Source: Candidatus Doudnabacteria bacterium (GTDB lineage: Bacteria; Patescibacteriota; Doudnabacteria; UBA920). Taken from it: DNA of 64,000 nucleotides. Below the pieces are notes generated by a model. It saw nothing but the letters and a program-made list of their open reading frames with translations. It was not told the DNA's origin and did not search any database. This document shows, in pieces, positions 25,194 to 36,135 of the stretch; position 1 is the stretch's first letter, and every line of letters starts with the position of its first letter. A program made the position numbers and the translations under genes. Location: contig JACRDK010000010.1 of the NCBI GenBank assembly GCA_016218585.1, positions 4,974 through 68,973 on the forward strand, read 5' to 3'.

Positions 25194-25262
25194 CTTCCAA
25201 CATCAACCAAAAAAGCGGCCTGCGCGAAGTCTAAACTTCCGCCGGCCGCTTTGTCTATTACC

Positions 25263-25358
25263 GGAGCAATTTTTCATACAGAAGTTGAAGAAAAATAAAA
25301 AAAGATAAAGTATAACTAAATAAAAAAACAGCGCAGGTCTAGAACCTGTGCTGTTTTT
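25263..25358. repeat. Direct repeat copy 2 (pseudo 3' end of anti-sigma gene + terminator)
   Basis: ggagcaa(tt)tttcatac(a)gaagttgaagaaaa(a)taaaaaagataaagtataactaaa...acagcGcaggtctagaAcctgtgctgtttttt. Confidence 0.85.
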
Positions 25359-26070
25359 TATACTTTGGTAATACTAACTCGCCGTTATACCCATAGGAGT
25401 GCAGTATTGCTTGCCATGCCATTTGAAGTAGTTCTTGAACAGGCACATCGGACTTAATATGCAAAGGATCTTCTTTTGATCCCAATCCCTCTAACCAGCC
25501 CCACTCTAGACCTCTTGTTTCTATTCCTGCATCGTGGATAAAGCCAGACCTGACGCGAATCCATAAATGATCTATGACATCCGAAAATTTTAAAATACTT
25601 TTATTATACTTGAATAGTTCCTCGACTTTGTATCTTTTTGCAATGTCAACCTTTGTTGATTCTGGCAGATTTTCTTCAAGAAATTGAGTTATTTTCTTTT
25701 GTTTCTTATTCCAGAAACCAGCCTTTCCTTTTGCGGTAATTTCCAGCATACCGAACATTATAACAATCATAAATTGAGACCACGTAATTTCCGAATAAAA
25801 TTTATAAAGACCATTTTCTGATTCTGTATTTAAAAGAGTCTTAAGTGGCAGAGCATGTATCTCAAAATAGTTTATTGCATTTACTAGCAACTTCTTTTTA
25901 TCGTCAGCTAACTTTTACAGAGTAGGAAGAAATTCTTCTGATAGTTCGTACCCAATTTGTATGTACTTTTGCTGTTCTTGCCCCCAAGAGTGAACGCGTC
26001 CAAAATATCCTGATTCTGGGCTTAGTACTTCAATTAACTTTCGGTTGATTTTTTCGTTTTGTTCACTCAT
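25339..26070 (-). pseudogene. 243-codon ORF interrupted by one in-frame TAA (25915-25917); hypothetical protein, AT-rich
   Basis: The 51-aa N-terminal ORF (ATG 26070) and the 183-aa ORF (25890-25339) are in the same frame, separated only by TAA; ATG overlaps the upstream gene's TGA as ATGA. Confidence 0.5.
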
Positions 26071-26831
26071 AGAGCTAGATTATTCTGAGTTTTTATCTGG
26101 TGATATTCTTCAATGTTTTTACAAAGCTTGATTCCTAGATCTGTTAAACGATCAGCAGAACGTATTCCGCTCCTGTCACTATAAGTTCTATCGCTGATGA
26201 GCTTTTGGTCGATTAACATAACTTCATCATTTTCAACTAATCCTGCTGAGTTATGACCCGCTAGTCTCGCTATCGTACTTAGCCATCCACTAGCTTCTCC
26301 TGTCATAGCAAGAGTAGAATCTTCCTTCTTATAAACTTTATAAGCCGCCCTTAATGTCAAAAGTTGTGAAGATGTTAATTTTTTTGTTATTTGGAATACC
26401 TGATAATTAAGTATTTCTTCCCCGTCTTTTTCTTTGATAACTGCAAAAAACATCGCTTTTATTGCATCAAATCTGTCTTCATCAGGAGCTTCATTATCTA
26501 TAAAATTTAGCAACTCCGCAAAACTATCAACTGCATATTTTTTGTCCCCATAGTTCGGCTTAATTTTGCCTTTATCTAACAAGAATTGCAATTCTTGGCC
26601 TAGCTGCTGTTTCATCTTGCCAACCAAAGCACCTTGTAAAATTCTACCTCCTGCCAAAATTATTTCCTCTTTTCCCATAGCTAAACCCGCACTTATAATA
26701 GCAGCAATTTTTGTCTTCGGTTGATCCAAGAGTATTTCTAAATCTTTTGGATTACGGTAAGATAAAAGTTCCCCTTGAATCGCAGAGGGTTTAAATGAAT
26801 CCAACTTTTTTACTTTATTATCTTCGTTCAT
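26067..26831 (-). CDS. Hypothetical protein (AT-rich block)
   Basis: Complete ORF; translationally coupled to the downstream ORF (ATGA); no recognisable family. Confidence 0.55.
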   Translation of the reverse strand: MNEDNKVKKLDSFKPSAIQGELLSYRNPKDLEILLDQPKTKIAAIISAGLAMGKEEIILAGGRILQGALVGKMKQQLGQELQFLLDKGKIKPNYGDKKYAVDSFAELLNFIDNEAPDEDRFDAIKAMFFAVIKEKDGEEILNYQVFQITKKLTSSQLLTLRAAYKVYKKEDSTLAMTGEASGWLSTIARLAGHNSAGLVENDEVMLIDQKLISDRTYSDRSGIRSADRLTDLGIKLCKNIEEYHQIKTQNNLAL

Positions 26832-26896
26832 AATATTTTATGTGCAAATTTCATTAAATTTCAAAGTCGCAAGCTATGTAGCATATTTTTGTTAAT

Positions 26897-28024
26897 TTAT
26901 TTACCATAATTATTTAGGACAATTTTATATAGAGTTGATGTTGTCCTAGATTTTGTAAAAGTGCTTTCGTAGAGGGTTTCTCCATTATCAAGTATGTATG
27001 GGTTGTCTAAATAATATTCAGCAATAAAACCAAACATATTATGAGGAATTTCTCTATAACCTAATGCCTCAGCTAAACTTATTTTATCATTTACAATATA
27101 TGGGTTGCCATGATTCCATGAATTATCAAACAGCCAGTTTCCGTTATCGTATTGAAGGACCGTAATTGCCCATTTATGGTCACACCAATGGCATTCAAAA
27201 TCATCTTTTAAATTTATCTGAGGATGCCCTAAAATAAGACGATATGTATCATCCTCCCCTAATTTTGCCCATTTAATAAAGGTATCAGTATCGATAATAT
27301 TTATGGAGATTTTTTTGTCATTATTAATTAAATCTATGGGTTTGGTAAATTCTTCATCTGCAGGTTTTAAAACCAAACATGTCCTCGCGACGCATTCTTT
27401 ATTATATGATAAATTTGGGAGAAATACTTCTTTATAGTTTCCATTAATGTTGTCAATAACAAAATTTATAAGATTCGTTCCACTACCGCAAACATTCCCA
27501 AGCATAGTAAAAATTATTTGTTTTTTCCCCTCATTATTTAAGTCTAAAACCTGACTCTTGTATATCCATAAATCTGTATTATCATCTTTGAACTGCGGTC
27601 TAAATTCATATTTTTTATTATACGGAATAGAAAAGGCGGAAAATAGCAAATTTTGGTTTTTTCTTTCGTATATTTGAATTATTGGCGGTTTTAATGATGG
27701 TGATTTATTAGAACATTGAAGTTTAAAATTTTTATCATTTGCAATTACTAATAAAGAACCGTCTCCATAACCAGCTAAATCAACTTGTTGAATTTGGACA
27801 TCATAATCAGTACCGATTTTGTATTTAATAAATTGTGCAATCCTTTCATTGCTATAATTACTCGGTAATTTACCATAAATAAATACAGAAATAATTATTA
27901 TAAAAATATAGCTAAATAGTAGTTTTACGACATCCTTTCCTTGATCTTTTAAAATTGATAGAATAGATTTTTTTATACCTGGAAAGAAATCTTTAATTTT
28001 ATTAGTGTATTCTTTATATGACAT
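26897..28024 (-). CDS. Hypothetical N-terminally membrane-anchored protein (AT-rich block)
   Basis: TM helix near N-terminus (LLFSYIFIIIISVFIY); Cys/His cluster HWCDHKW; preceded by repeat A copy 1. Confidence 0.55.
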   Translation of the reverse strand: MSYKEYTNKIKDFFPGIKKSILSILKDQGKDVVKLLFSYIFIIIISVFIYGKLPSNYSNERIAQFIKYKIGTDYDVQIQQVDLAGYGDGSLLVIANDKNFKLQCSNKSPSLKPPIIQIYERKNQNLLFSAFSIPYNKKYEFRPQFKDDNTDLWIYKSQVLDLNNEGKKQIIFTMLGNVCGSGTNLINFVIDNINGNYKEVFLPNLSYNKECVARTCLVLKPADEEFTKPIDLINNDKKISINIIDTDTFIKWAKLGEDDTYRLILGHPQINLKDDFECHWCDHKWAITVLQYDNGNWLFDNSWNHGNPYIVNDKISLAEALGYREIPHNMFGFIAEYYLDNPYILDNGETLYESTFTKSRTTSTLYKIVLNNYGK

Positions 28025-28077
28025 AGCTTCGTTGTTGAAAAAAGCTCAGAATTATCCCGTCTCATTATAGACATTAT

Positions 28078-28135
28078 AAGTATGCTACTGTAATTTCCCT
28101 CTGTCAATTTGCTTAATTTGTCCGGGAAAGGGGAG
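28078..28135 (-). promoter_or_regulatory. Repeat A copy 1 (promoter-like: ...GGACAAATTAAGCAAATTGACAGAGGGAAATTACAGTAGCATACTTATAAT on minus strand)
   Basis: Contains TTGACA and TATAAT-like hexamers; located upstream of the 26897-28024 gene. Confidence 0.5.
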
Positions 28136-28139
28136 ATAA

Positions 28140-28169
28140 AAACAAAACACCGCTATAGGCGGTGCTAAG
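28140..28169 (-). terminator. Intrinsic terminator of 28170-28616 gene
   Basis: caccgc..gcggtg hairpin plus TTTTGTTTTT on minus strand. Confidence 0.6.
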
Positions 28170-28616
28170 TTAATTTTCGATGATTTGAATTTGGTTCTCG
28201 GAAAACAAGGGTTTGAGTCTGTTGTAGATTTCTAAATTTACCCCCAAAATTATAACATACAACTTGTTTTTTAAATTTATTTCAATACTTCTATAAGTTC
28301 CGTCGGGTCTGGAAAGAATGGTTCTTTTAATAACGACATTTTTAATGTCAGAATATTTGATTAATATAGGGGTTTGTGAAAATGGTGAAAAGTTTGTGTT
28401 TTTTAAAACAAAGCCATCTTTTTGTAATTTTATTGAATCTTTTGCGCCACCCCTGCCTATAGGGAAGAAATAAATTTTTGCGAAAATTGAACGTACGGGT
28501 ATTTCCTCGCCCTCTATTTTTTCCCAACCGGATACTAATTTATAATAATTGTAGTTTGTAATGCAAAAAAATGTCAAAATTCCTAAAGCAATAATTATAA
28601 ATAGATAATTAATCAT
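28170..28616 (-). CDS. Hypothetical membrane protein with bacterial PH-like C-terminal region
   Basis: Probable start at MINYLF (28616); the track's N-terminal extension is repeat A read as codons; two TM helices. Confidence 0.5.
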   Translation of the reverse strand: MINYLFIIIALGILTFFCITNYNYYKLVSGWEKIEGEEIPVRSIFAKIYFFPIGRGGAKDSIKLQKDGFVLKNTNFSPFSQTPILIKYSDIKNVVIKRTILSRPDGTYRSIEINLKNKLYVIILGVNLEIYNRLKPLFSENQIQIIEN

Positions 28617-28646
28617 TGAATTAAAATAGTTTAAATCACTTAAGTT

Positions 28647-28710
28647 AAGTATGCTACTGTAATTTCCCTCTGTCAATTTGCTTAATTTGTCCGGGAAAGG
28701 GGAGGGGAAA
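28647..28710 (-). promoter_or_regulatory. Repeat A copy 2
   Basis: 61/62 identical to copy 1; directly upstream of the 28170-28616 gene. Confidence 0.5.
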
Positions 28711-28784
28711 ATAGGAGAACCGCAAGCGGGGGCGCTTGCGGTTTCGTTGCTATTGTTGGTCGATGGCCGTTTGCCCCCAGGCCG
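28707..28784. repeat. Repeat B copy 1 (structured element: aaccgcaagc/gcttgcggtt hairpin + ggcc..ggcc hairpin)
   Basis: About 95% identical to 30765-30840; lies 3' of the 28798-29348 gene. Confidence 0.7.
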
Positions 28785-28797
28785 TTGGCGTCGGAAT

Positions 28798-29348
28798 TTA
28801 CTTGGGTTGGAAGAGCGTTATTTGGCTGAAGCACCCAACACCCTGAGTGCGGTCTTGGTCTCTTTCCTGATCTTTGGATAGCAGGGTTTGAGAGCCCAAG
28901 CAGGAGCCGCGAGGATGCCCAAACATCAGTCGGTAGAGCATCTCTTGAATATTGGCGACGCTGGTTGAAGAAATGGAAGCGTTGCACCAATAAGTCTTTC
29001 CCATTGTCGGTTCTCCCTCTTTCAGAGTGTTGCGATCATTCCCACAGGTGTCGATCAGCATGTATGTTGTCATGTCAGCGCTCCGATAGGATCCGAATGG
29101 TAAGTGCGAATCCCAGTGGTAATACACGCTGACAAGGTATATTTTCCCCTTGAAGGTCACTCGCTCGATGACCTCTTGGGGAATTTTCGGTATTTCCTCG
29201 GTGGGGTCAGTCAAGCTCACGCTGAGTTTGACATACTTTTTGCCTGTTGCTTGGTGCTCTTCGATTTGGAGATTCGCAAGAGTCCCAGCTTCCACGAGAC
29301 GATCAATTTCAGCCTCGCCGCCTTTTTTCAACCATATCCGGACTGACA
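28798..29348 (-). CDS. Hypothetical protein (GC-rich island)
   Basis: Best start MSVRIW at 29348 with GAAGGAGG RBS; the track's TTG start is the TTGACA of repeat A copy 3. Confidence 0.5.
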
Positions 29349-29446
29349 TAATACCTCCTTCACCGCTAAGGGGTTCTTGTGGCGAGTACAATTTCGCCAT
29401 CTGCCTATTAGACGGTTGCGGAGTATTTGTAGCAAATAAGCATAAT

Positions 29447-29488
29447 ATTGTCAATTTGCTTAATTTGTCCGGGAAAGGGGAGGGGAAA
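29447..29488 (-). promoter_or_regulatory. Repeat A copy 3 (5' half only, retains TTGACA)
   Basis: gtcaatttgcttaatttgtccgggaaaggggaggggaaa identical to copies 1 and 2. Confidence 0.5.
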
Positions 29489-29504
29489 TTGCTATTTTAA
29501 ATTT

Positions 29505-29541
29505 TGTTGACATCTTTCACATTTGTGAACTATATCAACAA
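29505..29541. promoter_or_regulatory. Operator-like nested palindrome O2 (TTGTTGA..TCACATTTGTGA..TCAACAA)
   Basis: 7-bp outer inverted arms around a TCACA/TGTGA core; followed by conserved AAATTGYYATTTTAAA. Confidence 0.5.
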
Positions 29542-29582
29542 GTTAATTTTATTTAGAAAAGGAAAAATTGTCATTTTAAAAC

Positions 29583-29620
29583 TTGTCTAAAACTCTCACA
29601 TTTGTGAATATTTTAGACAA
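29583..29620. promoter_or_regulatory. Operator-like nested palindrome O1 (TTGTCTAAAAC..TCACATTTGTGA..GTTTTAGACAA)
   Basis: 10-bp perfect outer arms plus the same core; near-identical to 30697-30734. Confidence 0.55.
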
Positions 29621-29659
29621 ATTGGTTTTATTTTATTTAAGGAAAGGGGAGGGAATTGG

Positions 29660-29702
29660 AAAAGCGCCGGAGCCCGTATGGTGTACGGGGCGGCGCTTTT
29701 GC
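29660..29702. terminator. Bidirectional terminator (agcgccg..cggcgct) downstream of 29708-30484 gene
   Basis: GC stem flanked by A4 and T4 runs. Confidence 0.65.
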
Positions 29703-29707
29703 GGCGG

Positions 29708-30484
29708 TCAGTAGGTTAAAACGGCTTGCTTGATGTCAGAGATGTTGGTAGCGTGTGGTACGGTAATTCCATCCAAAGTTGTTTCGGTAAACACTTTGTG
29801 TGGCCCAACATGCTTGATCACGCCATTCACGGGCGCCCCATTCTTTAGGGTCAGCGTAACCATCATGCCTTCGTTCCCTGCGAGACCCTTCTGTGACGGG
29901 AAGTCGATAACCTTCACAGGAGCAAACTTCTCGGCCACAAAGCCCGGCGCATAGCGTATGACCACGCGGAACAGCTCTTGGTTATCCTTCAAGAGCGCGC
30001 CCAGGGCTTCGATTATGGTCGAGCCGAAGGCAAACGGCAACGGGGAATCTTCTTCCCCGCGCTGTGAGGGTCTGGCATCTGGATTGTCCAGAATCTGGGC
30101 TCTGATGATGTTGTCCGCGTTGCTCAATTCAATTGGCACTCGGCGAGTCTCGGTCATGCCCTCGTCGCTGTACTGGAAGAATTGCTCGGGTTCGTACGAG
30201 CAGACTTCGCCGCTTTCATCGCAGTTGCCAATTCTGACCGAGCCGTGGGACCATCCTCGAGAGGTCTTGAACATGAAGCACTCGGCTGTAATGTCCAAGA
30301 AGTCCTGGCGCTGGACGCGGATGGACAGATGCCGGAAATTTCCGAGCGTGCCATCGGGGTTTACGGGGTTGTCGTCGGGGTAAGGCTCAACTTCGTGTTT
30401 GAGCCAAATCAAGTCTGGTTGGTCTGCCATTTGCACCATCTTGAGCGCAAATTTCAGAGAAAAACCTTCCGAATCTTTAGACAT
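29708..30484 (-). CDS. Hypothetical protein (GC-rich island)
   Basis: 258-aa ORF; long structured 5' leader containing operator O3 and repeat B copy 2. Confidence 0.55.
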   Translation of the reverse strand: MSKDSEGFSLKFALKMVQMADQPDLIWLKHEVEPYPDDNPVNPDGTLGNFRHLSIRVQRQDFLDITAECFMFKTSRGWSHGSVRIGNCDESGEVCSYEPEQFFQYSDEGMTETRRVPIELSNADNIIRAQILDNPDARPSQRGEEDSPLPFAFGSTIIEALGALLKDNQELFRVVIRYAPGFVAEKFAPVKVIDFPSQKGLAGNEGMMVTLTLKNGAPVNGVIKHVGPHKVFTETTLDGITVPHATNISDIKQAVLTY

Positions 30485-30696
30485 AGTTGTTCTCCATCAT
30501 CCGGATGCCTGTTTTACCAGGTACTGCCATCTCCGGCAGCGAACTACGCGTAAAATACGCACAGATCGCTGCCGAAGAATAAACTCCTCCTTTACGACAT
30601 TAAAGTATATCAAAAGGCTTAGAAATGTCCAGGTTAATTTATAAAAAATATTTATCTATTCTAGAAAGGGTAATTAAAAAATTGCCATTTTAAATC

Positions 30697-30734
30697 TTGT
30701 CTAAAACTCTCACATTTGTGAATATTTTAGACAA
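30697..30734. promoter_or_regulatory. Operator-like nested palindrome O3
   Basis: 37/38 identical to O1. Confidence 0.55.
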
Positions 30735-30764
30735 GTTGATTTTATTTTATTTAAGGAAAGGGGG

Positions 30765-30840
30765 AAAATAGGAGAACCGCAAGCGGGGGTGCTTGCGGTT
30801 TCGTTGCTATTGTTGGTCAATGGCCGTTTGCCCCCAGGCC
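30765..30840. repeat. Repeat B copy 2
   Basis: See copy 1. Confidence 0.7.
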
Positions 30841-30868
30841 ACTAGCGAGAATCAGGGTTCGTCGCGCT

Positions 30869-31159
30869 CTACTTGAATAGGAGCTCTTTGAATTCGCTGA
30901 AGGTGCACAGGGAATGCGGAATCAGGATCACGCAACCCGATTCGGGATCGTACGTCCCAGCGAAAGTGAATGCGGCTTCTTTGAGCCACTCGCTGTTCCG
31001 TAGGATTGCCCGCCGCAGAGCGCGAGCGGAGTGGATGTAGCACTCGTTGAAATGTTCGTGTTTAACCCATCTCGGCCTTCGGTTCCTGCCTCCTCGGCTC
31101 AAAGCGGTCACTCCTTCCGGAGTTTCCCCTTTAATGATGATATAACCAGAAAGGTACAT
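30869..31159 (-). CDS. Hypothetical small protein
   Basis: Likely ATG at 31159; GC-rich. Confidence 0.4.
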   Translation of the reverse strand: MYLSGYIIIKGETPEGVTALSRGGRNRRPRWVKHEHFNECYIHSARALRRAILRNSEWLKEAAFTFAGTYDPESGCVILIPHSLCTFSEFKELLFK

Positions 31160-31373
31160 CAATTCTTCATCCTTTGTAGATGTATTCTGCTCTGCCCGGG
31201 TAATTTACCAGGGTAAGTCAGTTTAGCAATTCTATCATAAATTAGAATAAGTTCAAGTACTGAATATTTTTTTAAACAAAATAAAAAACTCTAAAGTTGG
31301 GAGCAGAAATGATGCAGCGCGAGGAACTTTTGGTTCCCCGCGCTGTGTGCTGGTGGTTGTTGTTGGCCTGCAA

Positions 31374-31598
31374 TCAAACCGTCCTGGGTTCGGTTTGTGC
31401 GCCTTGGGAAGCGCAAGGGTTTTTTGCGGCGAGCCGCTTGGCCCTATCCTGGTCAATTAGCTCGTTAATCACATCGTACACAACCCTTTTGCTGAATGGG
31501 CATTCAGCGCCGTCAGCGGTGGTGTGGGTTTCAATGTGGTCTTCGAGCTCTGAAAATTGGATTCGGCTGTTGCAGCCCGGGCAAACTGAGATTATCAT
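31374..31598 (-). CDS. Small Cys/His protein (putative zinc ribbon)
   Basis: CPGC...H..H...C; ATG overlaps upstream gene stop (ATGA). Confidence 0.4.
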   Translation of the reverse strand: MIISVCPGCNSRIQFSELEDHIETHTTADGAECPFSKRVVYDVINELIDQDRAKRLAAKNPCASQGAQTEPRTV

Positions 31599-31888
31599 GC
31601 CTTTCCTTTCGAACGCCGAAATCTTCTTGGCTTCTTGAAAATGACTGGGCCGTCGGCGGCCTTGAAGCTGAGAGCTGGACGCCCGGGTTTGGGCACTTCC
31701 TGGACTCCGGGGACCCTGGTGGCCTGCTTTTGCTTCTTGCCCACGAAGTACAGAATGCCTCCTTGCCAGGCGAGTTTCCGGCCCGGATACTCGCGCATTG
31801 CCAGTTCTTTCAAGCGCTTTCTCATCTTCAGGTAAGGCGCCCGTCCGCCAGGGTTTTCTTCGCCATGAGTCGTGCGGGGGTTAGCCAT
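31595..31888 (-). CDS. Hypothetical basic small protein
   Basis: AAGGAGGAG RBS 5 nt before ATG; preceded by GC-hairpin module copy 1. Confidence 0.45.
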   Translation of the reverse strand: MANPRTTHGEENPGGRAPYLKMRKRLKELAMREYPGRKLAWQGGILYFVGKKQKQATRVPGVQEVPKPGRPALSFKAADGPVIFKKPRRFRRSKGKA

Positions 31889-31960
31889 ACAACTCCTCCT
31901 TGTTGAAGTATAATACTGTGAGGCATAGTAGCAAAAAGCAATAACAAAGTCCAGGTATGA

Positions 31961-32000
31961 ACAAGCGCCGGGTCCGCGGGGGTGCGGACTCGGCGCTTTG
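31961..32000. repeat. 40-nt GC hairpin repeat copy 1 (AACAAGCGCCGGGTCCGCGGGGGTGCGGACTCGGCGCTTT), terminator-like
   Basis: Near-identical copy at 33707-33745; both followed on minus strand by promoter-like ctggacttt..tata region and an RBS-bearing gene. Confidence 0.7.
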
Positions 32001-32020
32001 TGCTTGTTGACGTGAGTACG

Positions 32021-32539
32021 TTAACCGCTGGCCTTTTTCCAAATAAGGCTTAAGGCCAGAGCGGCTAAGCTGATCCAAAACCACCAGTTGTACAGCTTGG
32101 TGTGCGGATACGACTTGTGGTCCGGCGGCAGGATTAAAATGAATTTGTCTTTTCTCTTTATCATCAGCCTGTCCCTAATGAGAGAAATGAACAGCTGGTC
32201 GTCCGGCGGTTCATTCGACAAGTTGTATCTGATTGTCGCTTCCTGAATCTCCACCAGGTTGTTGAACCAGATTTGAAACGGAGGCGACGCCGGGTTAACC
32301 GCGAAATGAAGGTCGGTTTTCTTTAAGCCGTAACCTCTGAGGTGGGTGACGGCTGTGTCGATGTTTTTCTGGCAGTCCTTCATATTTTTGGCAAACACGG
32401 CTTGCCGCAAGGGCTGCTCTACCTTATTGGCGAAGTCGTAGCCGTGGTGCCACCTGAGAATCAGGCACAAAGCCAAAGCGGCGAAGGCCAGGGAAATCAT
32501 CGCTTCTTGCCACGGAAAGAATCTGTTATTCACGTTTTC
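32021..32539 (-). CDS. Single-pass membrane protein, paralog A (WFNNL motif)
   Basis: Best start GTG 32539 with AGGAGG RBS; TM ISLAFAALALCLIL; paralogous to 32563-33096. Confidence 0.5.
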   Translation of the reverse strand, partial: ENVNNRFFPWQEAMISLAFAALALCLILRWHHGYDFANKVEQPLRQAVFAKNMKDCQKNIDTAVTHLRGYGLKKTDLHFAVNPASPPFQIWFNNLVEIQEATIRYNLSNEPPDDQLFISLIRDRLMIKRKDKFILILPPDHKSYPHTKLYNWWFWISLAALALSLIWKKASG

Positions 32540-32562
32540 CTCCTGAATGCTGTGCGAGTGTC

Positions 32563-33096
32563 TTAATATCCGTTGTCGTCCTTTGCAACCCACCAGCCAA
32601 GACCGCCTACAAACATCATCGTGCTTACCAAAGCCCAACACAGGTAGAGGATGCCGTAGGGGTAGGTGGAGATGCCGGTAGGTGATTCAACCACCAGAAG
32701 TCCTCGCTCTTCCTTAAGAATTTTCTCGCGGACAGTTTCGAGCATTTCTTCGCCTGAGGGGAAGAAGCCCTCCTGTCCTTGCCTCTCTAGCGCTTCTTGA
32801 AGGTTGGCCAGGTTGTTAAACCACGCCTGCGTGTCGGAGATGTTTTGATTGCGCGGCGCATTGTTCGGAGTTTTCTGAAAACCCATCTCCTTCAGGTGCG
32901 AGATAGCTACGCTTAAGTGCTCAAGGCATTCCTTGGTGCTCTTGGAGTAAGCGGCACGACTCAAAGGTTCTTCGATGTTGCGGTTGAACGCTGTGAGGTT
33001 TGAAATAGACATCAGGACGCAGAACAGCATTAACAGCAATCCTATGCCCGCGATGTTCACGCTCAACGGTGTAGCTTCTTTGTTTTGCGTTTGCAT
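32563..33096 (-). CDS. Single-pass membrane protein, paralog B (WFNNL motif)
   Basis: Shared blocks: basic-Cys..H(L)xxxG..KT..AWFNNLANLQEA; N-terminal TM. Confidence 0.5.
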   Translation of the reverse strand: MQTQNKEATPLSVNIAGIGLLLMLFCVLMSISNLTAFNRNIEEPLSRAAYSKSTKECLEHLSVAISHLKEMGFQKTPNNAPRNQNISDTQAWFNNLANLQEALERQGQEGFFPSGEEMLETVREKILKEERGLLVVESPTGISTYPYGILYLCWALVSTMMFVGGLGWWVAKDDNGY

Positions 33097-33314
33097 TCAT
33101 ATCCTCCTGTATTTTCCACGAACAAATAAAAATACCACATTGCTGTGGTTGTGTCAATTGTGATTATAATTTACTGAGAAGTAAAATAAAAATTTTAATA
33201 GCGCAGGAGCCCCCACTTCCTGCGCTATTTCTGCTGGCATTGTTGCCGTTAGTTCAAGTACGATGCGTTCGGTTCGACGTTGTTGGTTATTCAGCCGACT
33301 CTCTTGCCGCCCTG

Positions 33315-33635
33315 CTACCGCTCGGTCACGAACTTCTTTTCGCAGTTGGGGCAATCGTTGGGCCCAAGCTTCACGTTGTTGATGAACCGTTTGCAATAAG
33401 GGCAGTCGGAGCTGCCATACATTGCACCTGTGTAGTAAGGGTACCACTGGGTCTTTTTGGCGCTTGGTTTCTTGTCCAAGGAGCGCAGGTATTCCCACCG
33501 GTTTTGCCGAGCCGCTTGAACTGCTTTTTTGGAAATAACCTCGCCATTCCAATTGCAGCGGAACCGGTTGCGGGCAAGGGGGGTAAACGTAATGCGTTTG
33601 TCCAGCTGGACTGTGCCTTGATTCGATATCGGCAT
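33315..33635 (-). CDS. Small zinc-ribbon protein (CPYC...CPNC)
   Basis: AAGGAGG RBS; preceded by GC-hairpin module copy 2. Confidence 0.45.
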   Translation of the reverse strand: MPISNQGTVQLDKRITFTPLARNRFRCNWNGEVISKKAVQAARQNRWEYLRSLDKKPSAKKTQWYPYYTGAMYGSSDCPYCKRFINNVKLGPNDCPNCEKKFVTER

Positions 33636-33706
33636 CGAGTCCTCCTTGCAGCAAACTATACCAAACTGTTCAAAAAAAGTCCAGATTTATAAAAAAGTAA
33701 AAATTA

Positions 33707-33745
33707 ACAAGCGCCGGGTCCGCGGGGTGCGGACTCGGCGCTTTT
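33707..33745. repeat. 40-nt GC hairpin repeat copy 2
   Basis: See copy 1. Confidence 0.7.
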
Positions 33746-33857
33746 ATATAGCTTGCCTGATTTCCGTTCAGGCGGACGGCTGGGTTACAATTGTGCTCAA
33801 TAAAAAAACAAATGAGTACGGTAAAATTAGAAGTCAGTTACTTTGGTGGTGTGACGG

Positions 33858-34058
33858 TTAGTTTTTTTCTTCTAGTTTTTTTCTCATTCCCTCCAAATGG
33901 TTTTGAAAGTCAATGCCAACAAAGTGCGCCTTAGCAACGCATTCCGCACAGTGGGACAGGTGGCTTACGGCTTGCGCATCGTCATCGGTTAATGGCCCCC
34001 CAGAACCAGCAAACAGGCGAGCAAGCTGCTCGTCTGACACGTGATCGTCTTTATCCAT
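33858..34058 (-). CDS. Small protein with anti-sigma-like zinc-finger motif (HxxxCxxC)
   Basis: AGGAGG RBS; SHLSHCAECVAKAH. Confidence 0.4.
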   Translation of the reverse strand: MDKDDHVSDEQLARLFAGSGGPLTDDDAQAVSHLSHCAECVAKAHFVGIDFQNHLEGMRKKLEEKN

Positions 34059-34238
34059 ACAGCCTCCTCTTGTTAAGAAAGACTATATTATATAGAAGAC
34101 AAGGTCAAGAAAAAAATAGCGAAAAGTAAAAACTCCCGCATGAAAATGAACAATAAAAATAAAGCCCTGTTATTTAAAGAAATGAAGATGCCGCCGACAG
34201 CCTTAATGGCATTGTCGGCGGCGGTTTGGAAGAGACAG

Positions 34239-34427
34239 TTAGTCCTTAGTGGGGGGAACTTTTTTCCCTGTTCCTCCGCACGAAGGGCACTTGGTAACTT
34301 CGGTGCTCCAGAGGCATGAGCATTCCATTAACCCTTGCGAGTCTTTGCCGTCCCCGCGGCAAAGTGGACACACGCCAATTCCTGTTCCACCACAATCGGG
34401 GCACAGTTCGTCAGTTTCGATAATCAT
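34239..34427 (-). CDS. 62-aa protein composed of DnaJ-type CXXCXGXG zinc-finger repeats
   Basis: CPDCGGTG, CPLCRGDG, CPSCGGTG; GGAGG RBS. Confidence 0.5.
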   Translation of the reverse strand: MIIETDELCPDCGGTGIGVCPLCRGDGKDSQGLMECSCLWSTEVTKCPSCGGTGKKVPPTKD

Positions 34428-34441
34428 AATTCCTCCATTGT

Positions 34442-34726
34442 TTACGGTCCGGCTACGGGCACGTCACATTTGCCCTCATAGGCAATGTTCATAACCGGTT
34501 CTCCTGCCCACTTTGTCCTTTCCAGCCAAAGAATTTTGGCCGACGGACAGGAATCATGGAAAACCTTGGCGGCCTCCGCAGCGCTCGCGGCATCAACAAA
34601 GACGCTGCTTGGTTTTGTGGCGGTGCTTCCTGCCCAAATGCGTGACGCTGCGACCTTCTTGTTTTTTGGCGGAGCCGTAAAGCCCACGCTTAAACAAATT
34701 AAAAACAACACTAGCAGCCTCCTCAT
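34442..34726 (-). CDS. Small secreted protein
   Basis: Signal peptide MRRLLVLFLICLSVGFTAPP; AGGAGG RBS; first gene of a 3-gene operon. Confidence 0.5.
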   Translation of the reverse strand: MRRLLVLFLICLSVGFTAPPKNKKVAASRIWAGSTATKPSSVFVDAASAAEAAKVFHDSCPSAKILWLERTKWAGEPVMNIAYEGKCDVPVAGP

Positions 34727-34819
34727 GGCTACCTCCTTTTTATTTCAATGCAATTATATCATTTTGGCTTTGAGTGTGGAAAGTTTAAAAAAGCGGAAAA
34801 ATTTGCATATAAATATTTA

Positions 34820-35431: not shown

Positions 35432-35821
35432 TGGTGGAGATGCCGGGAGTTAAACCCGGGTCCAAAACTAATTCACTTTCCAATTGTTCACAAGATTAGC
35501 TAAGTTTAATACCTCTATAACAATAACTTAGCAAATAGTTATAAAGGGCGATTTACGTGTCTTAAGCTTGCGGGTGCAAATCAAATCCGCAAACAGCAGT
35601 CCAAAATGAACCCGGCGATCTTAGGTTTGGACAAACTTAAGGCCGGGATCTCAGCTTAATAAATTAAGCTAAGACTGGTTGTAAGTCGGCGTTTTGAAAC
35701 GCGGCTACAACTTTATTCCATGCGTTAGCATTTGTTTGTGTCCGAGGGATTTACGAGTCTTCAGACTGGCTCGTCTTGCATATTAGAAAATGTCAAAGTC
35801 CTGTCAAAATCCGTCATCCCC
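35432..35821 (-). ncRNA. ssrA: Transfer-messenger RNA (tmRNA, SsrA)
   Basis: Minus strand 5' GGGGAUGACGGAUUUUGACAGG (compare GGGGACGUUACGGAUUCGACAGG). 7-bp acceptor stem pairing with 3' CAUCUCC-ACCA including the G3:U70 wobble. T-arm CCGGG-UUUAACU-CCCGG. Internal tag-like ORF ...DLQPVLA-TAA. -35/-10 promoter just upstream. smpB is present 9 kb away. Confidence 0.8.
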
Positions 35822-35849
35822 GTGGGCTATAGCATATCATTTTTTATAA

Positions 35850-36135
35850 GTATTGACAATACCGCAGAAATATGGTATTTTTATGTGTTACAAGCTTCCT
35901 CTTATGCTGATAAAGTCTATCAGTTTTAGCGGGAGCTGGTCTGGGTGGACATGGCAAGGACAGGTGTTGGTATGAGCTGATCATATCTTCACACCCTCTC
36001 TTGCAGCCTCCACTTGCTCGTTTGACCGAACAAACGCTCAGGCGACCTTCAGGGTCAGCTCCCATAATTTCCACGGAGGAATAAAAATTAAAAGCAACGG
36101 TAGGCGACGCAATCGCTATGCCGTTTTTTAATATA
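35850..36135 (+). ncRNA. Candidate structured non-coding transcript divergent from ssrA
   Basis: TTGACA-17nt-TGGTATTTT promoter sharing its palindromic -35 with the ssrA promoter; about 230 nt with long-range GGGAGCTGG/CAGCTCCC pairing; ends in hairpin plus TTTTTT at about 36100-36130; no ORF. Confidence 0.3.

Follow-up and report, generated by a model that had tools for sequence, protein, structure and literature searches.

The stretch analysed here, called the window throughout, comprises 64,000 nucleotides of contig JACRDK010000010.1, from a metagenome-assembled genome (MAG) of a Candidatus Doudnabacteria bacterium, and is bacterial chromosome (argS, ileS, pcrA). Within it, three 38-bp nested palindromes, designated A, B and C, lie among small, G+C-richer genes that have no Pfam or PHROG match and adjoin a transfer-messenger RNA (tmRNA) gene; the neighboring genes are all on the minus strand. 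Every palindrome has outer arms around an inner core, and all three occupy intergenic regions upstream of orphan genes (Table 1). A first-pass annotation of the letters alone had reported the palindromes with two of them identical at 37 of 38 positions. They are present as described, but B and C agree at all 38 positions and A begins at 29504, not 29505. In every copy 15 of the 18 arm positions are self-complementary. The window contains three occurrences of the 13-nt core TTCACAAATGTGA, where 0.07 would be expected, and none of 100 shuffled sequences gave three.

A conserved box, AAATTGYYATTTTAAA, accompanies each palindrome and is found exactly three times (29486-29501, 29565-29580, 30679-30694). 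The annotation placed this box after each palindrome, which holds for the minus strand, the strand of the genes; on the plus strand it comes 2 nt before every palindrome. Palindrome and box together are part of an 87-nt repeat unit, which we name D1, whose copies B and C are 95% identical and whose copies A and B are 66% identical. Along the minus strand the order is the same at every copy: the terminator of the upstream gene, then D1, then the proximal promoter of the next gene. Both ends of Logan contig L001 fall inside palindromes B and C, and short-read assemblies break at such elements.

Outside the window, a scan of species-representative genomes returned 12 matches, of which 10 were chance matches to the core alone and two were contigs of one MAG (ERP119705_co23_139) that carry the full 38-bp palindrome in unrelated flanks. 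The two contigs (L005 and L007) overlap by 55 nt and thus represent a single locus with a split regulator gene. This MAG is labelled Saccharibacteria; the nearest named homologues of its regulator are from Doudnabacteria. The same locus is held by a contig from the Hainich groundwater metagenome (L015), where the order is a divergent EamA transporter gene, a palindrome, a gene for a 222-amino-acid (aa) protein with a PaaX_M domain, a second palindrome and the gene of an M23 peptidase lipoprotein. The palindrome is the sole sequence that this contig has in common with the window.

Loci were then fetched for nine regulator homologues, comprising six close species with 75-96% identical regulators (L015, L016/17, L018, L019, L020-22 and L023) and three distant relatives at 48-52% identity (L025, L026 and the Curtissbacteria locus L030). 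In each of the six close species a 38-bp palindrome precedes the regulator gene. A second palindrome stands between the regulator stop codon and the ribosome-binding site of the M23 gene in L015, L016/17, L018 and L020-22; the contigs of L019 and L023 end at the regulator gene, leaving the upstream site alone visible. The three distant loci keep a palindrome on either side of the gene, with diverged palindromes of 36-40 bp and different downstream genes, and in L025 and L026 the second palindrome is upstream of the next gene's separate promoter. Across these loci the neighbors of the regulator encode an EamA transporter, an M23 peptidase, a polysaccharide-synthesis protein, a methyltransferase or orphan proteins. 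An extended -10 promoter belonging to the divergent EamA gene itself (TGATATAAT) begins some 10-20 bp from the palindrome on the regulator side (L015 1630-1665; L016 5860-5898), and this transporter may be under the same PaaX-like repressor.

The palindromes differ between species in a concerted way. Their arms read TTGTCTAAAA, TTGTTGATAA, TTGTTCAYAA, TTGCTAC.. or CCTCCCAAA, and the two sites within one genome have the same arms; in L030 the core is altered as well (CGCAATTGCG), identically at both sites. Because an RNA stem needs complementarity alone, the recurrence of the same arms at two sites in one genome points to a shared trans-acting reader. The type of arm also follows the predicted recognition helix of the adjacent regulator, with ..IKTA-H-AF.. 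alongside TTGTCT, ..TA-Q-TF.. alongside TTGTTGA and ..A-R-AF.. alongside TTGTTCA, and a distant regulator (P0015) has an AQTF helix and arms TTGTTGAA/TTGTTAAA. In the window, palindrome B matches exactly the site 3' of the regulator gene at two loci with an 'AHAF' regulator helix, L015 and L020-22, and the arms of palindrome A are of the type found with the 'AQTF' helix at L018 and L019. Concerted change of the palindromes, together with this tracking of the recognition helix, argues for a protein operator and not for an RNA hairpin or a mobile repeat.

The protein encoded between the paired palindromes is 220-222 aa long and matches Pfam PaaX_M (PF20803; E = 8.5e-15). Its AlphaFold model (pLDDT 90, pTM 0.77) comprises three helices, a beta wing and a Cas2-like ferredoxin domain, after which it ends without a further domain; PaaX_C gave no match at E <= 0.1. 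Structural comparison (Foldseek) with the Protein Data Bank (PDB) placed Escherichia coli PaaX first (8a39; E = 5e-5, probability 1.0), followed by the PaaX-like 3kfw and, lower, 3l09, with no BlaI/MecI structure among the 50 best fold matches. At the sequence level, neither the regulator nor its profile had a significant match in the PDB. A hydrophobic segment at residues ~36-62 was considered as a transmembrane helix and dropped, as it belongs to the winged-helix core of the AlphaFold model.

More than 200 homologues of the regulator were found, mostly labelled Doudnabacteria. The first-pass annotation had seen no cognate regulator inside the island, and a tblastn search with 120 homologues likewise found none in the island or in the 64-kb window, but one is encoded elsewhere in the genome. 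HY918_03550 (MBI5530550.1; our P0002) lies on another contig, of 55 kb, of the same MAG; it shares the locus-tag prefix HY918 with the window genes (e.g., HY918_01930), and its accession is 292 from that of the window-encoded ArgS (MBI5530258.1). The protein shares 86% identity with the L015 regulator, and its helix is of the 'AHAF' type, which predicts TTGTCTAAAA arms, the arms of window copies B and C. From its helix type and its presence in the same genome, HY918_03550 is most likely the cognate regulator of the window palindromes.

Promoter geometry suggests a direction for the palindromes. At the regulator promoters of the six close species, the right half of the core supplies a predicted -35 element (TTGTGA or TTGTAA), the outer arm plus 4 nt makes up a 17-nt spacer, and a -10 hexamer follows. 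The arrangement palindrome-N4-TAAAAT (TATAAT in L015) is found at 6/6 of these promoters and, on the minus strand, at 3/3 window copies, and at none of the 4 sites that follow a regulator gene. The ATG of the regulator follows 10-12 nt beyond the -10, so that its mRNA would be nearly leaderless. On the minus strand all three window copies read ATGTGA-N17-TAAAAT, with TAAAAT exactly 4 nt past the palindrome, and the box (TTTAAAATRRCAATTT on that strand) is best read as a -10 hexamer with its start region. Start sites are predicted near 30680, 29566 and 29487. Whether the window copies serve as repressor-controlled minus-strand promoters for the island genes we consider about evenly balanced.

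Taken together, the sequence evidence suggests that the palindromes are very probably operators of the truncated PaaX-like repressor, in keeping with the dimeric-repressor operator that was among the annotation's proposals. The centers of the outer hexamers, which are 26 bp apart, are separated by 31 bp, about three helical turns, and so lie on the same face of the DNA. Each 38-bp palindrome would be bound by a repressor homodimer, HY918_03550 in this genome. Where one palindrome overlaps the promoter of the repressor gene, autorepression is predicted, and the second palindrome, directly after the regulator stop codon, would place the next gene (the M23 peptidase in close relatives) behind an operator. 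In the orphan-gene island, three such operators built into intergenic regions would provide repressor-controlled upstream promoters and bring island genes into the regulon, with transcripts from D1 reading past the genes' own promoters and on into genes 29708-30484 and 28798-29348. Simple occlusion of those proximal promoters is excluded because the palindrome centers lie ~100-185 bp upstream of their predicted start sites. We infer that the repressor does bind these sites, that the window promoters are active in the minus-strand direction and that repression answers to an inducing signal; the explanation as a whole, PaaX-like repressor operators with built-in promoters, we regard as probable.

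Several observations weigh against this explanation. The window -35 element, ATGTGA, is weaker than the TTGTGA of the regulator promoters, and the internal asymmetry of the palindromes (CTC..ATA, central TT) is oriented opposite to the window genes. The sites do lie upstream of both minus-strand genes, as the first-pass annotation stated, but its placement of them in long 5' leaders is uncertain, since both genes own closer promoters; at L029, the one retrievable homologous locus of the 258-aa gene, the native promoter and leader are conserved and there is no palindrome. Arm and core are 12 bp apart, too far for one recognition helix to read both. Tracking between helix and arms is supportive, not conclusive, as the lineages are few and mutually related. 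Finally, the TTGTTGA arms of copy A match the family-consensus 'AQTF' helix and not that of HY918_03550. Copy A might be bound more weakly, might belong to an unseen paralogue, or might survive from a module acquired from another lineage.

An alternative hypothesis is that the window sites are operators of the same repressor but without promoter activity, acting as a roadblock or insulator behind terminators, by looping between the tandem sites or as a decoy that titrates the repressor. Every D1 in the window stands directly behind a terminator, and a position that does not overlap a promoter is natural for the second operator in L025 and L026. However, even copy A, diverged as it is, shares the exact N4-TAAAAT with B and C, whereas pure operators would need none, and the centers of A and B are 79 bp apart, ~7.5 helical turns, and therefore out of phase for simple looping. 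We consider such promoterless operators rather unlikely. Slightly less likely still is that the promoters fire on the plus strand, producing short regulated transcripts, antisense to the upstream genes at their 3' ends, that stop at bidirectional terminators (29655-29700, 30775-30800). The internal asymmetry and central TT would then be oriented as they are relative to gene direction in nearly all relatives, copy A reads TTGACA-N18-TATATC on the plus strand, a purine-rich block (GGAAAGGGGAGG) follows the palindrome, and downstream terminator hairpins lead into T-rich tails on that strand. Yet the plus-strand -10 candidates (TTTTAT, ATTTTA, AATATT) lack the key A at position 2 or T at position 6 and none appeared in the promoter scan, the conserved box on the other side makes a much better -10 for the minus strand, and no conserved open reading frame (ORF) or Rfam family was found on the plus strand. 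Small plus-strand ORFs behind the purine-rich block were rejected, as they are not conserved between copies.

That the palindromes act as RNA, whether as the attenuator hairpin suggested by the first-pass annotation, as a terminator or as a processing site, is very unlikely. They do fold stably (-12.5 kcal/mol on the plus strand and -16 kcal/mol on the minus strand, z = -5 to -6), with compensatory arm changes between copies and between species. At the regulator genes, however, the palindrome is upstream of the -10 and the ATG only 10-12 nt after it, which puts the palindrome outside that transcript. The site L016-R folds at only -3.9 kcal/mol (z = -0.9), like shuffled sequence, the AT-rich stems were not called by the terminator scan, and no Rfam match was found. 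The two sites per genome keep the sequence itself, which covaries with the DNA-binding helix. A small mobile or recombining repeat resembling a miniature inverted-repeat transposable element, with no regulatory role, is scarcely credible, as is a CRP-type site. D1 is reused as a module within 3 kb, as are the D2 and D3 units described below, and assemblies break at the copies, both points in favor of such a repeat. But there are just three copies in 64 kb, in one cluster, and one other species, with the motif at syntenic positions, supplied all the real matches in the genome and metagenome collections. Among viral contigs the generic nested motif was absent and a loose pattern gave one chance match; phage DNA gave no match. 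The annotation had held that copies at random genomic positions, as ends of a mobile repeat unrelated to promoters, would tell against its operator; what was found outside the window is the motif at fixed syntenic positions flanking the regulator gene. Its proposal of a CRP-like operator does not survive comparison: CRP and FNR sites have the pentamers TGTGA and TCACA in common with the window, but the order TCACA-TT-TGTGA is reversed and differently spaced relative to the CRP site TGTGA-N6-TCACA, an incompatible geometry, and no CRP-family protein is implicated.

The nearest characterized system to the proposed PaaX-like repressor is PaaX itself, known from the phenylacetate catabolon of E. 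coli and Pseudomonas (8a39, 3l09, 3kfw), with which the regulator shares an N-terminal winged helix and a Cas2-like middle domain. In E. coli, PaaX recognizes TGATTC-N27-GAATCA, 39 bp overall, and represses its own promoter by steric hindrance of RNA polymerase (PMC9493321). The palindromes here are similar in build, TTGTCT-N26-AGACAA (6+26+6, 38 bp; 6+28+6 in distant relatives), and by sequence, in the six close species, they likewise extend over the regulator promoter's -35 and spacer. In contrast to PaaX, the regulator lacks the C-terminal helical domain (PaaX_C), a domain implicated in phenylacetyl-CoA sensing. No paa genes are among its neighbors, and the putative targets are the M23 peptidase and other envelope or orphan genes. 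Its sites also have an extra, strongly conserved inner dyad, YACA-WW-TGTR, and occur on both sides of the regulator gene.

The inner dyad recalls a second family. In BlaI, MecI and CopY, a KACANNTGTM dyad is bound by a Penicillinase_R winged-helix dimer. The box of these repressors is TACANNTGTA (PMC7253601), and the core YACAWWTGTR, which reads TACATTTGTA in L025 and L026, follows the same 10-mer pattern; those systems too are autoregulated, with two operators per locus. However, the window core CACATTTGTG breaks the K and M positions and the L030 core is no strict fit either, the linked regulator has no Penicillinase_R match in Pfam, and the 38-bp site has outer arms that look essential. We treat the likeness to this box as resemblance only.

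Table 1. Features of the palindrome region, in window coordinates; operator and promoter assignments are predictions.
Feature	Position	Strand	Description
Palindrome A	29504-29541		Variant candidate operator; arms TTGTTGA../..TCAACAA, core TCACATTTGTGA; full 38 nt, TTGTTGACATCTTTCACATTTGTGAACTATATCAACAA
Palindrome B	29583-29620		Candidate operator; arms TTGTCTAAAA/TTTTAGACAA; full 38 nt, TTGTCTAAAACTCTCACATTTGTGAATATTTTAGACAA
Palindrome C	30697-30734		Candidate operator; same sequence as B (TTGTCTAAAACTCTCACATTTGTGAATATTTTAGACAA)
D1-A and D1-B, tandem 87-nt units	A 29484-29570, B 29563-29649 (together 29484-29649)	-	Between terminator of gene 29708-30484 and D2 promoter of gene 28798-29348
D1-C	30677-30763	-	Between terminator module D3 and native promoter of gene 29708-30484
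Predicted -10 of D1-A, TAAAAT	29494-29499	-	Inside box; predicted -35 ATGTGA at 29517-29522
Predicted -10 of D1-B, TAAAAT	29573-29578	-	Predicted -35 ATGTGA at 29596-29601
Predicted -10 of D1-C, TAAAAT	30687-30692	-	Predicted -35 ATGTGA at 30710-30715
Orphan gene HY918_01930, 258 aa	29708-30484	-	Downstream of D1-C; no Pfam match
Orphan gene, 183 aa counted from ATG	28798-29348	-	Downstream of D1-B, D1-A and D2
Native promoter of gene 29708-30484	30604-30631	-	TGGACA-N16-TATACT with upstream TG; kept in L029
D2 promoter module, TTGACA (CCCCTCCCCTTTCCCGGACAAATTAAGCAAATTGACA...)	28077-28142, 28646-28711, 29424-29489	-	Copy at 29424-29489 adjoins gene 28798-29348
D3 terminator module, 87 nt	28704-28790, 30761-30847		Two copies, 94% identical
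tmRNA gene	35432-35821	-	Tag ANAWNKVVAAFQNADLQPVLA

The genes around the palindromes form a ~6-kb run of small orphans (28750-34750) at 50-57% G+C, compared with ~42% for the genome, bordered by the tmRNA gene. Most of them have their own promoter and a strong terminator, and ten of their proteins returned nothing useful against Pfam and PHROGs. The 258-aa protein HY918_01930 fell into 5 clusters among 1.84 billion representatives in an exhaustive search; a word-indexed search gave only itself. The promoter and ~110-nt leader of its gene (30485-30640, minus strand) are 81% identical to L029 300-468, a locus that comes from a different sample, whereas the proteins are just 50% identical. This leader holds a long hairpin (CGGCAGCGA...TCGCTGCCG) with apparently compensatory changes, preceded by AAAGGAGGA, and it may be an uncharacterized cis-regulatory leader RNA.

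The intergenic regions look assembled from reused modules, namely D1, the promoter module D2 and the terminator module D3. D2 cassettes precede three consecutive genes, two of them AT-rich. The region next to the G+C-rich island (25250-28700) is strongly AT-rich (25-37% G+C) and carries orphan genes of 254, 375 and ~130 aa, with the D2 cassette common to both regions. Two island genes are followed by a nearly identical GC-rich terminator hairpin (AACAAGCGCCGGGTCCGCGGGGTGCGGACTCGGCGCTTT; 31957-31999 and 33703-33744). A 49-nt inverted repeat (78%) is present at 33121-33169 and 35841-35889, and a plus-strand promoter that sits beside the tmRNA gene and is directed away from it has a look-alike in the TTGACA-N17-TATTTT promoter of island gene 32563-33096, an instance of promoter reuse. 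This gene and its orphan neighbor 32021-32530 (both minus strand) have hydrophobic N and C termini and a common DNA repeat (32237-32269/32791-32823, 79%), giving them the look of tandem paralogues. Fourteen nucleotides of the tmRNA 3' end (GGTGGAGATGCCGG) recur exactly, in direct orientation, at 32665-32678 inside an ORF; the match is marginal (E = 0.026) and could reflect a former attachment site or coincidence, and no integrase was seen. An Rfam ylbH leader match at 28597-28750 (plus strand), overlapping D2 and D3, was below threshold (23.8 bits against a gathering score of 50; E = 0.037) and is probably chance.

We speculate, and regard it as improbable, that the island arrived by horizontal transfer and connects its genes to a host PaaX-like regulon through portable operator-promoter cassettes. 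Two tandem specificity types, the family-consensus TTGTTGA of copy A and the host-specific TTGTCTAAAA of copy B, could then let a cassette respond to, or titrate, the repressors of different host lineages. Separately, and equally speculatively, the inner dyad might be read by a second factor, which would make the site a two-protein composite operator.

The Patescibacteria (Candidate Phyla Radiation) are uncultured and their gene regulation is almost wholly uncharted; we found no paper linking PaaX-like proteins to them. The pairing offered here comprises a widespread truncated PaaX-like protein of ~220 aa, a palindromic site of 36-40 bp and a recurring operator-gene-operator layout. The mechanism, an autoregulated dimeric repressor, would be ordinary, and what is noteworthy is its setting and the apparent recruitment of operator-promoter cassettes by an orphan-gene island. 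No structure of a PaaX-family protein in complex with DNA had been reported by the time of a 2022 review (PMC9493321), and the natural variation between arms and recognition helices offers a specificity series for studying DNA recognition in this family. A first sketch of the regulon would include the regulator itself, the cell-wall peptidase of the M23 family, perhaps also the divergently encoded EamA transporter and, for the present genome, the orphan island genes, and the pairing of regulator and operator would provide a testable entry into gene regulation in these bacteria.

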